Positions 34,301-37,300 of a DNA stretch of 64,000 nucleotides are shown one piece after another. The DNA lies in the NCBI GenBank assembly GCA_041687695.1, contig JAWLBL010000016.1:104722-168721 (forward strand). The letters run 5' to 3'. The position numbers are program-made. Each line of letters starts with the position of its first letter. Position 1 is the first letter of the stretch. The DNA comes from Myxococcota bacterium. GTDB lineage: Bacteria > Myxococcota_A > UBA9042 > PHBI01 > JAWLBL01.

Positions 34301-37300
34301 GCGTCGGCGTCCTGCGCGCCTACCACACCCGCCACGGCGCCGGCCCCCTCCCGACCGAGGACCCGGCGCTGACCGCCGCCCTGCCCGACGCCGACAACGC
34401 CGACCACCCCTGGCAGGGCGCCTTCCGCGTCGGCTGGTTCGACGCCGTCCTCGCCCGCTACGCCCTCGCCTGCGTCGGCGGCGTCGATCGGCTGGTCGTC
34501 ACCTGCCTCGATCGCTTGGCCGATCACCCCGCCCCGCGCCTGTGCGACGCCTACGCCCTCGGCGACCGCCGCCTGACCGACCTCGCCCCGGCCTCCGACC
34601 CCGCCGATCGCGACGCGCTGACCGCCTCCCTGCGCGCCGTCCGCCCGCTGCTGTCGCCCGCCCCCGACCTGCTCGCCGCCATCGCCCAGGCCCTGGGCCG
34701 CCCGGTCGATCTCGCGTCCTATGGGCCCACCGCGACCGACAAACGCGAACTCACTGAATGACCGCTCAATTGTCGGCTGGCCGCGCGCCGCCGCCGGGTG
34801 CTATAAACCCGACCGTCGCGGGGGGGACCGAGCCCCGATGGGAGACGAAGATGAGCGGATTTCCTACGGATTGGCCCGGGCCCGGCCCTCTCGACCTGGC
34901 GGTCCACGACCTGCCGCACGCCTCGTCCGCGACGGAGTGGTGGTACGTCAACACCCACGTCACCACGGTCGACGGGCGCCAGCTGTCGCTGTTCGCCTCG
35001 TTCTTCCGCATCGTCAAGGGCCGCGACGAGGCGACCGGCGAGCCGCAGTACGCGCACTCGCTCAGCTGGGCGATGACCGACCCGGCGCGAAAGGCCTACT
35101 GGGGCGAGACCCTGGTCGACCGCGACGCCCCGCGGCTGGGCCTCGACAAGCTAGAGCGCGGCGAGGGATCGCAGGACCAGCGCCTGCGCCGCGCGATGCG
35201 TGAGGTCTTGCTCAAAGGCAAGGTGCCCTGGCCCGACCGCCTCTTCACGGCCGACCCCTTCGTCGCCACGCGCAGGCTCGAGCTCGAGTTCGAGGGCAAC
35301 ACCTTCGTCAAGCGCGACGACGGCGCCTACGCCCTGACCCTGCGCCACCCGCACTACCACTGCGGCGCCGAGCTGGTCTTCACGCCCCGCAAGCCCGCCG
35401 TCCGCCACGGCGAGGACGGCGTGGTCAAGGGCACCCAGGGCGAGGACATGTTCTACTACTTCATCCCTCGCTGCGAGGTGACCGGGCAGGTCACGGTCGA
35501 CGGGCTGCCGATCCCGGTGGCCCAGGGCGAGGGCTGGTACGACCACGAGTTCGGCGGGCACCGGCCGCACGGCGACGGGCAGGGCGAGGACGCCAAGCTG
35601 CCCGACGTGGCGTGGAATTGGCTGGCCGTGCAGCTGGCCGACGGGCGCGAGCTGTCGGGTTACCAGCTGGTCGACGTCGGCGAGGGCCGGTCGCTGGGCC
35701 AGAAGGTGCTGCTCATCGACCGCGAGGGCCGCCGCGAGGCCTACGACGACTTCACGCTCGAGCCCGAGCGCCTGTGGCGCAGCACGCGCACCTTCAACGA
35801 CTACCCGGTCGCCTGGCGGCTGACCGTGCCGGGCGCCGGCGTCGCGCTGACCCTGACCGCCGACGTCGACGACCAGGAGATGATCACCGTCATCTCGAAG
35901 CCGGCCTTCTGGGAGGGGCGCATCACCGCCACCGGCCGGGTCGGCGACGCCGAGGTGACGGCGCTGGGTTACCTCGAGCGCAGCGGCTACCAGACCGTCG
36001 ACGGCCTGGACGACTTCTTCAAGGCCGTCAGCGTCGAGGTCCGCAAGTCGGTCGCCGCGCTGGTGCCGATGGACCCGAGCTGGGAGCAGGTCCGCGACAT
36101 GATCGCCAGCGAGGAGCGCGCCCACTACATGCAGGGCGTCGACCTCGAGCAGGTCAAGCGCACCGCGGTCGAGCCGGTGCGCGCCATCACCGACCGCGGC
36201 GGCAAGAGCTGGCGCTCGTACGCGGCGCTCGCCTGCTGCGACATCGTGGGCGGCGACTCGCGCAAGTACGTGCAGTGGCTGGCGATGCCCGAGCTGATGC
36301 ACGTCGGCTCGCTCATCGTCGACGACGTGCAGGACCGCTCGACGGTGCGCCGCGGCGGTCCGTCGTGCCACATGATTTACGGTGACGCGCTGGCCATCAA
36401 CGCCGGCACGGCCTGCTACTTCATGGGCCAGAAGCTGCTCAAGGGGTCCGACGTCAGCGATCGGGCCAAGCTGCGCCTGTACGACCTGTACTTCGAGGCG
36501 CTGCGCGCCGGCCACGCCGGGCAGGCCTTCGACCTCGAGGGCCTCGGCGCCGAGATGCCGGCCGTCATCGAGACGGGCGACGGCGACCGCCTGGAGGAGC
36601 GCGTCCTGTGCGTCCACCGGCTCAAGACCGCCGCCCCGGCGGGCGCCCTGTCGCGCATGGGCGCGGTGGCCGGCGACGGCACCGAGGCGCAGATCGAGGG
36701 CCTGGGCCGCTACTTCGAGTCGGTGGGGCTGGCCTTCCAGATCATCGACGACGTGCTGAACCTGCGCGGCTTCAAGGGCGATCTCAAGGCCAAGGGCGAG
36801 GACATCAGCCACGGCAAGATCACCATGCCCGTCGCCAAGGCGATGAGCCGCCTCGAGCGCGCCGACCGCGCCTGGATGTGGGAGACCGTGGCCTCCAAGC
36901 CGCAGGACCCGGCGGTCGTCGGCCAGGTCATCGCCAAGCTCGAGGCCTGCGGCGCCCTGGACGCCTGCGTCGAGCAGGCCAACACCCTGGTCGAGGACGC
37001 CTGGCGCGCCCTGGACCCGCTGGTCGAGGACTCGCTGCCCAAGCTCATGCTGCGCGCCTTCGGCTGGTACGTGCTCGAGCGGCACTACTAGCCCCCGGTT
37101 GACGCCCCCGAGCGCGTCCGCACGGTCTGTCGACGGACCCGGACGCCTCGGAGGCGAGATGAGCCAACGCCCAACGGCGGTCGTCACCGGCGCCAGCCGC
37201 GGCCTCGGCGCCGCCATCGCGCGCCGGCTGGCCCCCCGCTGCCGCCACCTGGTGCTGCTGGCGCGCTCCGAGGACGCGCTCGCCGCCTTGCGCGACGAGC

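Follow-up and report, generated by a model that had tools for sequence, protein, structure and literature searches.

A Myxococcota gene that joins an AttH/CrtC-type double barrel to a trans-prenyl diphosphate synthase, and the prenyl-lipid pathway it may head

What does a bacterium do with a single polypeptide in which a double barrel of the carotenoid-hydratase type precedes a prenyl diphosphate synthase? Such a protein is encoded in DNA of a Myxococcota bacterium (GCA_041687695.1, contig JAWLBL010000016.1, positions 104,722-168,721 of the forward strand); the positions given below refer to this 64-kb stretch, the window. The reading that we favour, and to which we would give an even chance, is that of a bifunctional synthase and hydratase heading a hydroxylated prenyl-lipid pathway. 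The survey's finding had proposed a chimeric prenyltransferase and terpenoid-modifying enzyme, and this proposal is supported in part: both halves look competent, their docking is predicted to be fixed, the characterised members of the barrel's family all catalyse hydration, and relatives of the gene are linked to glycosyl- and sulfotransferases.

The gene and the parts of its protein

The fusion gene (34851..37091, + strand; 746 aa) lies in an open reading frame spanning 34758-37091 on the same strand, with a GC content by codon position of 0.70/0.46/0.97. ATG 34851 is preferred as the start because GGGAGA, a putative ribosome-binding-like site (34840..34845, + strand), stands 5 nt before it, and because the resulting N-terminus, MSGFPTDWPGPGPLDL, agrees with the family consensus start. 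The protein is cytoplasmic and has no signal peptide. Upstream lies an unrelated housekeeping gene, purA, encoding adenylosuccinate synthetase (33490..34761, + strand, start approximate; PF00709 on residues 503-915 of ORF 31984-34761). An SDR oxidoreductase gene (37099..37938, + strand; Pfam adh_short) follows the fusion after 8 nt and is itself overlapped by 4 nt by a gene of the NAD-dependent epimerase/dehydratase family (37935..39020, + strand; assigned by Pfam, with a weak HpnA-like match). A promoter and terminator scan of 34400-39400 returned 0 sites.

That one gene encodes both a barrel and a synthase is confirmed. Pfam places, above cut-off, a CrtC N-terminal lipocalin domain at residues 28-235 (34932..35555; PF07143, 1.7e-18) and a second barrel, Lipocalin_9, at residues 253-380 (35607..35990; PF17186, 7e-24), in which S311 and E343 are invariant; these are followed by the trans-prenyl diphosphate synthase domain at residues 440-696 (36168..36938; PF00348, 3.8e-45), all on the + strand and exactly at the boundaries that the survey had given. 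A sequence search of solved structures gave 2ich (4.8e-20 over residues 139-380) for the barrel half, and 5e8k (1.8e-26), 3mzv (1.1e-24) and 4jxn (7.3e-24) for the synthase.

The two halves and their predicted docking

The survey had found no second Asp-rich motif and had left synthase activity in doubt. A second DDxxD is indeed absent, but FQIIDDVLN supplies a DDxxN at residues 633-637 (DDVLN; 36747..36761, + strand), the form that the second Asp-rich motif (SARM) takes in human GGPP synthase (FARM 64-DDIED-68, SARM 188-DDYAN-192; PMC4106277) and in the fungal GGDPSs treated in PMC7484799. The first motif (FARM), DDVQD, was recovered at residue 491 as reported (491-495; 36321..36335, + strand); it carries no insertion, aligns without gaps to long-chain synthases, and has the small residues G486 and S487 at positions -5 and -4. 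Since DDxxN is a documented SARM, the synthase half looks intact and, judged by its motifs, catalytically competent.

Conservation was read from an alignment of 58 family sequences. Since 10 representatives had been removed beforehand (P0194, P0212 and 8 that lack the synthase motifs), selection accounts in part for the invariance of these motifs. In this alignment, D491, D492, D495, R500, R501, R455, K592, Q630, D633, D634 and D651 are present in 58/58 sequences and K452 in 57/58, while position 637 is N in 41, D in 16 and A in 1. We take K452, R455, R500, R501 and K592 to be the basic residues that bind IPP and diphosphate (GGKxxR, RRG, KT). Among 55 full-length representatives taken without selection, 47 carry both motifs and 8 carry neither; the SARM of those 47 reads DDxxN in 30, DDxxD in 16 and DDxxA in 1.

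In Foldseek searches the synthase domain matches 1wy0 (TMt 0.88), 4jyx (0.86) and 3mzv (0.81), all of the all-alpha isoprenoid synthase fold. With its uninterrupted DDxxD, its DDxxN and its all-helical fold, it resembles the type III (eukaryote-like) GGPP synthases, human GGPPS among them. By sequence, however, it stands nearer to plant, archaeal and bacterial enzymes (5e8k being the best) than to those of yeast (2dh4, 4.6e-14) or human (2q80, 2.9e-13), and it carries the N-terminal barrel in addition. Partial NCBIfam matches, all below cut-off, are led by IdsA short-chain synthase (130 bits) and an encapsulin-cargo prenyltransferase (129.9), with octaprenyl (74.5) and heptaprenyl (69.8) synthases further down. 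The chain product would most likely be C20, although its length is uncertain: longer chains would be compatible, too, with the residues G486/S487 and with the alignments to deca- and octaprenyl synthases over the full length.

The best match of the N-terminal half, in structure as in sequence, is the putative AttH protein NE1406 of Nitrosomonas europaea (2ICH; Foldseek 7.6e-22, TMt 0.86), and kievitone hydratase 7a0t follows at 5e-16 (TMt 0.77). When aligned with six standalone AttH-like proteins, the fusion barrel shares 24 invariant columns with them, including EWWY29-32, Y202, R207, W229, D231, W255, W257, Q342, E343 and E376. The motif W229-Y230-D231-H232-E233 (35535..35549, + strand) is the candidate general-acid motif of the barrel: position 231 is acidic in every one of the 58 family sequences (D in 50, E in 8), and W229 is kept in 55. 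Mutagenesis of CrtC, as described in PMC4717167, identifies an essential Asp and aromatic residues on its N-terminal side, at distances of two and about 27 positions. By motif position and spacing rather than by direct alignment to the mutated enzymes, D231 would be the counterpart of catalytic RgCrtC Asp268, and the barrel half, too, looks catalytically competent.

The fusion shares the two-barrel AttH fold and the Pfam pair with CrtC (Rubrivivax gelatinosus, Thiocapsa roseopersicina), kievitone hydratase (7A0T/7A0Q) and archaeal Hgs; a conserved acidic residue, the putative counterpart of the essential Asp, likewise stands in an aromatic motif where barrel 1 ends. These three, CrtC, kievitone hydratase and the OH-GDGT synthase Hgs, are presented in bioRxiv 10.1101/2025.10.20.683597 as the characterised members of the AttH family, and each of them turns an isoprene double bond into a tertiary alcohol by adding water; by analogy, the same cofactor-free hydration would be expected of the fusion. 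What sets the fusion apart from them is its synthase partner domain, a helical insert of ~55 residues, the lack of a signal peptide, and Y, F and W, residues of similar but not identical kind, in place of H239, W241 and Y266 of CrtC. Its substrate is presumably a prenyl diphosphate, instead of a carotenoid, a flavonoid or a tetraether.

The barrel might also be a protonation-initiated (class II-like) terpene cyclase that works on the chain as it is made, whether or not water is captured at the end, which would make the protein a bacterial counterpart of the fungal prenyltransferase-cyclase chimeras with a beta-barrel instead of an alpha-helical cyclase. We know of no AttH-family member that cyclises, and, to our knowledge, bifunctional prenyltransferase chimeras are textbook matter for fungi only. 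Many invariant aromatic residues (W30, W31, Y32, Y202, W229, W255, W257) would suit a cyclase, and the authors of PMC4717167 propose the CrtC mechanism itself by analogy to squalene-hopene cyclase, with a highly acidic Asp and carbocation-stabilising aromatics. The order of an N-terminal tailoring domain and a C-terminal prenyltransferase is also that of the fungal PTTSs described in PMC8307374, of the fusicoccadiene synthase type, in which the prenyltransferase feeds a terpenoid-modifying domain within one polypeptide, as it may do here. In those enzymes, however, the N-domain is an alpha-helical terpene synthase of class I and ionises the diphosphate, whereas the N-terminal half of the fusion is an all-beta double barrel of a hydratase family in bacterial hosts. 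The survey had cited this paper for chimeras confined to fungi; the chimeras that its relevant passages describe are of prenyltransferase and class I terpene synthase, and because of this different architecture the remark is no like-for-like precedent. We consider a cyclase quite unlikely, since the characterised family members all hydrate, though the present data do not tell cyclisation from simple hydration.

The helical insert (residues ~93-150, with helices at 93-102 and 110-121; 35127..35300, + strand) is absent from the six standalone AttH-like proteins and has a median occupancy of 58/58 within the fusion family. In the AF2 model of the whole protein (pLDDT 92.2, pTM 0.90) and in complex predictions of residues 1-400 against 401-746, the two halves are predicted to dock rigidly through this insert, residues 109-128 of which face synthase residues 447-481 and the C-terminal helices at 726-743. 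The complex score is 0.79, against 0.00 for the best of 3 controls, in a prediction made from two halves of one chain with an alignment of our own building; such a score is attained by 116 of 157 solved complexes and by 2 of 215 mismatched pairs. At least 93% of the contacts are common to the runs, and partner pLDDT is at least 86.

Such docking would also suit a barrel without catalytic function, one that receives or shields the product, sets chain length or passes the chain to a membrane enzyme, all chemistry being left to the synthase half. Lipocalin-type barrels are lipid binders, and non-catalytic partner subunits have a comparable role in heteromeric medium-chain prenyl synthases. The predicted contacts of the barrel run along helices 454-481 of the synthase and along those at its C-terminus, and WxD(H/R)E is no proof of hydratase chemistry because AttH-like proteins of unknown function keep it too. 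Nevertheless, we regard a purely lipid-binding barrel as rather unlikely. The invariably acidic position 231 and the polar and aromatic set common to the AttH superfamily exceed the needs of a passive pocket, and WxDHEF is retained in 8 of 11 relatives whose synthase motifs are lost or degenerate, which makes the barrel the more constrained half in such proteins. One synthase-less relative, P0231, has a C-terminal half that could not be aligned to the synthase with hhalign and gave no usable Atlas match.

Relatives and gene neighbourhoods

Of the 8000 candidates scored in a homologue search, 1556 proteins reached E<=0.001; the 1,405 matches at E<=1e-10 counted by the survey were not reproduced as such. 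The best 120 are as it had described them: all carry PF07143, PF17186 and PF00348, measure 721-859 aa, are 58-67% identical (the window's own protein, 100%) and, where named at all, are called 'polyprenyl synthetase family protein', 'Octaprenyl diphosphate synthase', 'hypothetical protein' or 'GGPP synthase/predicted secreted hydrolase'. Its statement that the carriers are mostly Myxococcota or 'Deltaproteobacteria' proved too narrow. A genome scan yielded 158 loci with fusion relatives, and by record titles the best 80 of these comprise ~38 of Myxococcota/'Deltaproteobacteria' type (58-67% identity) and ~40 of Bacteroidota type (47-54%), together with one cyanobacterium, Iningainema tapete (53%), and one labelled Patescibacteria. 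A full-text literature search, subscription-only papers being outside its scope, again found no paper on an AttH/CrtC-prenyl synthase fusion.

Standalone AttH-like proteins of Myxococcota are open frames of 340-500 aa that lack the helical insert, several of them with hydrophobic N-terminal leaders. A strong standalone match (>100 bits) and the fusion occur together in 7 of 201 sampled Myxococcota genomes, from which we argue that the two have distinct roles.

No neighbour is conserved across all of the 80 loci. The arrangement of fusion, SDR and epimerase genes is not a conserved cassette, given that the epimerase and purA are each found at 0/80 loci and the SDR gene, in the form of generic 28-33% matches, at 3/80. 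A GT28-like lipid glycosyltransferase gene directly adjoins the fusion at 5/80 loci, which span Cyanobacteria and Bacteroidota and show either order of the two genes; in Telluribacter humicola KCTC 42819 (locus L040) a GT28-like gene, the fusion and an LMF1-like gene form a cassette. A GT4 gene is adjacent at 5/80 loci. Among 29 representatives scanned with Pfam, a GT1 domain is fused to the protein in 2 and a sulfotransferase in another 2. Being linked or fused to glycosyl- and sulfotransferases, the fusion relatives imply a hydroxyl acceptor, which again speaks against a passive lipid-binding barrel. An HMG-CoA reductase gene lies adjacent and divergent at 6/80 loci.

The linkage to glycosyltransferases recalls carotenoid glycosides, in which a hydratase followed by a glycosyltransferase is known logic, and the carrier phyla are typically pigmented. 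Both domain families are known from carotenoid pathways, and the fusion gene is the sole PF07143 match of its own 99%-complete genome. The protein could thus combine CrtE (GGPP synthase) and CrtC (1,2-hydratase), supplying GGPP at the start and, once the carotenoid is finished, adding water to its psi-end; the resulting 1-OH would then be glycosylated as in the carotenoid glycosides of myxobacteria and green sulfur bacteria. We find this quite improbable. CrtC proper would be expected in carotenoid or photosynthesis clusters; for the fusion, crtI is found within 8 kb at 0/80 loci and a lycopene-cyclase-like gene at 1/80, and its own genome has a separate cluster of crtY, prenyl synthase and crtI on contig 24. 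At the positions that would correspond to H239-x-W241 and Y266-x-D268 of CrtC proper, the fusion reads Y202-Y-F204 and W229-Y-D231, the Asp alone being retained, and among 1.84 billion representatives the nearest relatives of the barrel N-domain are nearly all fusions, not canonical CrtC. Finally, the predicted rigid docking of the two active sites would suit an enzyme that carries out one step directly after the other on a single molecule; in a carotenoid pathway, CrtB and CrtI would come between the two.

Other candidate partners were also considered. GGGP synthase (PF01884) was rejected as a general consumer of the product, for the fusion's own genome has no match over cut-off and the 3 of 5 other carriers that do are all Bacteroidota. 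A membrane protein of ~600 aa adjoins the fusion at 12/80 loci. Sequence searches against Pfam, NCBIfam and the PDB gave no match for it; with this query it was not found in the fusion's own genome, and it was ruled out as a relative of the LMF1-family neighbour by profile comparison. The sole lead to its nature is an Atlas match to PMT_2 (GT-C) on 11% of one cluster.

An H-NOX-fold partner and the proposed pathway

In Myxococcota, the fusion pairs with a protein of the H-NOX fold, a link newly seen here. A strong match to this partner is present in 16 of the 201 sampled genomes, 15 of which also carry the fusion, and in 13 of these 15 the two genes lie no more than 500 bp apart. The copy in the window (9096..9701, + strand; 201 aa), the only one of its genome, is 39% identical to the L028 partner. 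Its AF2 model (pLDDT 96.5) gives 29 Foldseek matches at E<=0.001, and those listed are nearly all H-NOX (TM 0.57-0.66). Within the partner family (n=20), no column has His in more than 13 sequences, and in that same column 5 sequences have W and 2 have F; as no His ligand column is conserved, the partner is not a member of the H-NOX family by the proximal-His criterion.

For the bifunctional synthase and hydratase that we favour, we infer each chemical step and the product as follows. The C-terminal domain would be catalytically active as a trans-prenyl diphosphate synthase of the same kind as the type III (eukaryote-like) GGPP synthases; it would extend an allylic diphosphate with IPP into a chain of short or medium length, most likely C20. 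Held rigidly on the synthase by the helical insert, the double barrel would use its buried acidic D231 to protonate a trisubstituted isoprene double bond, after which water capture would give a tertiary alcohol, as homology suggests. The hydroxylated prenyl product would stand at the head of a lipid pathway, to be glycosylated or sulfated in relatives and, in many Myxococcota, probably bound or sensed by the heme-less H-NOX-fold protein. The fusion probably begins a hydroxylated, often sugar-decorated terpenoid lipid.

A bolder version, which we hold to be very unlikely, makes the barrel a new beta-barrel, protonation-dependent cyclase/hydratase whose substrate, the nascent C20 diphosphate, is still in the grip of the docked synthase; the result would be a hydroxylated, possibly cyclic diterpenoid, a signalling or membrane lipid bound by the H-NOX-fold protein in Myxococcota. 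If this were true, the H-NOX fold would gain a terpenoid ligand, and bacteria would have their own kind of prenyltransferase-cyclase assembly line.

On our favoured reading, the chimera differs from the fungal ones in joining a synthase to what would be a cofactor-free hydratase, and it occurs in 24 of the 201 sampled Myxococcota genomes, in many Bacteroidota and in some cyanobacteria. It speaks for hydroxylated terpenoid (glyco/sulfo)lipids of an as yet undescribed class in bacteria that are common in soil and freshwater, and it could serve as a selective biocatalyst that adds water to unactivated isoprene double bonds; the partner, in turn, suggests a possible non-heme ligand for the H-NOX fold. 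Because the carriers include the cultured Telluribacter humicola and Iningainema tapete, the question is directly testable.

In the window's own genome, no GT28-like partner was found with the L039 query, nor any glycosyltransferase partner with the queries used, none adjoins the fusion, and the downstream SDR and epimerase genes are a local arrangement. The H-NOX-fold gene, which adjoins the fusion in related Myxococcota, lies here 25 kb upstream of it. In the sole genome that has the partner and lacks the fusion, the partner gene contains an in-frame TAG.

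Architecture and distribution of the fusion

The open frame of the fusion runs over 34758-37091 on the + strand, with a GC content by codon position of 0.70/0.46/0.97 in a surrounding window of ~75% GC, and GGGAGA at 34840-34845 precedes the ATG at 34851. Given that the N-terminus read from this ATG, MSGFPTDWPGPGPLDL, agrees with the consensus start of 57 relatives, a length of 746 aa (34851-37091) was accepted. Pfam places a CrtC domain at residues 28-235, a Lipocalin_9 domain at 253-380 and a polyprenyl_synt domain at 440-696, exactly reproducing the coordinates of the survey's finding; the gene is real, as described there. 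Its sequence matches in the PDB are 2ich (AttH, 4.8e-20) and GGPP, deca- and octaprenyl synthases (1.8e-26 to 7.3e-24). All three domains are present in each of the best 120 of 1556 homologues, which measure 721-859 aa and, the window's own protein (100%) aside, share 58-67% identity. No description of a CrtC/AttH-prenyl synthase fusion was found in the searched literature.

We regard it as an even call that the fusion is a bifunctional GGPP-type synthase/isoprene hydratase: the two activities in one protein would yield a hydroxylated prenyl lipid precursor, to which a sugar or sulfate would be added in many relatives, and with which an H-NOX-fold binder would be paired in Myxococcota.

A genome scan for the fusion returned 158 loci. 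By record titles, the best 80 comprise ~38 of Myxococcota or 'Deltaproteobacteria' type, ~40 Bacteroidota (Chitinophagales, Saprospiraceae and the cultured Telluribacter humicola), one cyanobacterium (Iningainema tapete) and one Patescibacteria. When the barrel alone was searched against 1.84 billion representatives, 180 hits were obtained at E<=1e-30; among the best 150, 55 measure 715-830 aa with identity to the query down to 29%, and many that are shorter appear to be truncated copies. This makes the fusion an old one. Across 201 evenly sampled genomes of the window's phylum, the full fusion occurs in 24, any CrtC domain in 59, and a strong standalone AttH match (>100 bits) together with the fusion in 7. 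In the window's own genome, which is 99.3% complete, there are five genes with PF00348 but a single CrtC domain, that of the fusion. One sampled genome (G182), with no CrtC-domain hit, holds a 378-aa open frame (C23:38407-39459) that matches the synthase half alone (397-746, 45% identity), a possible relative of that domain, either unfused or split.

The synthase and barrel halves

The survey had found no second DDxxD by pattern. The sequence indeed reads otherwise, but the second Asp-rich motif is not missing: it takes the DDxxN form, DDVLN, at residues 633-637 within FQIIDDVLN. Human GGPPS carries 64-DDIED-68 and 188-DDYAN-192 (PMC4106277), and DDxxN is described as a canonical second motif of fungal GGPP synthases, one DDxxN protein being a terpene synthase (PMC7484799). 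Among 55 unselected full-length representatives from the barrel-only search, 47 have both motifs (the second being DDxxN in 30, DDxxD in 16 and DDxxA in 1) and 8 have neither. A family alignment of 58 rows, built after removal of the 8 motif-less proteins and of P0194 and P0212, shows little or no variation at the residues that bind metal and diphosphate. Judged by its motifs, the synthase half looks intact. Since the first Asp-rich motif lacks an insertion, positions -5/-4 are G486/S487, and in NCBIfam short-chain IdsA and an encapsulin-cargo prenyltransferase give the top partial matches, above octa- and heptaprenyl synthases, we read this half as GGPP-type (C20), though longer chains may also be made.

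In the AlphaFold2 model (pLDDT 92.2, pTM 0.90), the N-terminal half resembles 2ich (TMt 0.86) and kievitone hydratase 7a0t (TMt 0.77). Residues EWWY29-32, Y202, R207, W229, D231, W255, W257, Q342, E343 and E376 are invariant between the fusion and six standalone AttH-like proteins of the same phylum, position 231 being D in 50 and E in 8 of the 58 aligned rows. The barrel thus appears to keep the active-site signature of the AttH/CrtC family, of which an OH-GDGT synthase is presented as the third characterised member (bioRxiv 10.1101/2025.10.20.683597). Where relatives have lost the synthase motifs, 8 of 11 retain WxDHEF, and in those lineages the stronger constraint is on the barrel. That the barrel is a passive lipid-binding module is in our estimation improbable.

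Mutagenesis of CrtC found H239, W241, Y266 and D268 essential, with the Asp proposed as proton donor (PMC4717167). By motif position and spacing, D231 would correspond to D268, whereas the three aromatic/His positions read Y202, F204 and W229 in the fusion; hence the barrel is not CrtC proper. A CrtE-CrtC carotenoid enzyme, which would join the same two domain types, is less probable still: crtI lies within 8 kb of the fusion at 0/80 loci, and the window's genome has a separate crtY/prenyl synthase/crtI cluster elsewhere. We give equally little weight to a class II-like cyclase of barrel type.

Predicted docking and the H-NOX-fold partner

An extra stretch at ~93-150 with two helices, absent from the six standalone proteins, is found throughout the fusion family, even in the synthase-less relative P0231. 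When residues 1-400 and 401-746 were folded as separate chains, the docking score was 0.79, against 0.00 for the best of three controls; such a score is attained by 116/157 solved complexes and 2/215 mismatched pairs. Between runs, at least 93% of contacts recur, with partner pLDDT of at least 86. On the barrel side the predicted interface covers 109-128 (the insert helix), 312-313, 341-347 and 386-400, of which 312-313 and 341-347 flank invariant S311 and E343; on the synthase side it covers 447-464 (containing the GGKxxR motif), 470-481 (the lower half of the first-motif helix) and the C-terminal helices 726-743. The prediction supports a fixed geometry of barrel and synthase, docked through the insert, but is not evidence of a channel.

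Five divergent barrel relatives (P0154, P0247, P0127, P0215 and P0231) have an N-terminal PX domain and/or lost synthase motifs, and in some the C-terminal half no longer aligns to prenyl synthases. All have the insert, most have WxDHEF, and the composition of two looks eukaryotic.

At 19/80 loci, all of Myxococcota type, the fusion adjoins the gene of a ~200-aa protein that matches nothing in Pfam or NCBIfam. The window's genome encodes a single homologue (39% identity), whose gene lies within the window itself (9096-9701), upstream of the fusion by 25 kb. Foldseek with its model (pLDDT 96.5) gave 29 hits at E<=0.001, those listed being nearly all H-NOX domains (TM 0.57-0.66). Given that none of the columns among 20 sequences is a conserved His (best column: H 13, W 5, F 2), heme ligation is unlikely. 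Strong matches (E<=1e-38) occur in 16 of the 201 sampled genomes, 15 of which carry the fusion, the two genes lying no more than 500 bp apart in 13 of these 15; related genomes are not independent, and these figures are counts only. In the exception (G099) the partner gene contains an in-frame TAG, and nine fusion carriers lack the small protein. The simplest reading is that the partner would bind, carry or sense the hydrophobic product. This partnership with a heme-less H-NOX-fold protein has not been noted before.

Neighbours and local setting

No neighbour is common to all 80 loci. At five (L039, L040, L046, L056, L057) the fusion has a GT28-like lipid glycosyltransferase as its immediate neighbour, on its own strand and with either gene coming first, and a 760-aa LMF1-family (lipase-maturation-factor) membrane protein lies 17-20 bp downstream at three (L040:10252-12534, L056:10261-12564, L057:10261-12543). 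Also seen are an adjacent convergent GT4 glycosyltransferase (5/80), an adjacent divergent HMG-CoA reductase (6/80) and a ~600-aa membrane protein without family (12/80). Among 29 distinct Pfam-scanned representatives, two have an N-terminal GT1 domain, two an N-terminal sulfotransferase (one also with a weak GT4 match) and two a PX domain, with a weak PX match in a third. Because glycosyl- and sulfotransferases need a hydroxyl, these links fit a hydratase product. In Cytophagales/Chitinophagaceae, a three-gene cassette runs from the GT28-like gene through the fusion to the LMF1-family protein.

Closely downstream of the fusion lie an SDR gene (37099-37938) and an epimerase/dehydratase-family gene (37935-39020). 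As conserved partners both were rejected: the epimerase matched 0/80 fusion loci, and the SDR gave generic similarity only, at 3/80. purA, upstream, is housekeeping. The proposed mechanism was accordingly not built on any of these genes.

Upstream of purA, very G+C-rich ORFs at 28087-31653 (+) and 31874-33481 (+) carry several zinc-ribbon (DZR) domains; gene calls at 31.6-33.5 kb are ambiguous since several frames are open. A WYL/WCX-domain regulator-like gene (40878-41945, +) precedes an ORF (41994-42830, +) whose match to Cas3_HD is weak and sub-threshold. A very large ORF running off the window end (58854-63998, -), with FG-GAP, TcdB_toxin_midN and RHS-repeat domains, encodes a Tc/Rhs-type shell protein; ORFs 52177-59214 (-, 2345 aa) and 47896-52176 (-, 1426 aa), with no Pfam match, follow it. 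Finally, one open frame on contig 8 of the same genome (L005) joins an N-terminal half that, from its translation, reads as HMG-CoA-reductase-like to a polyprenyl-synthase domain with an altered first motif (THDDAERR) and a normal second (QIQDDLLD); this genome would then have two unusual isoprenoid fusions.
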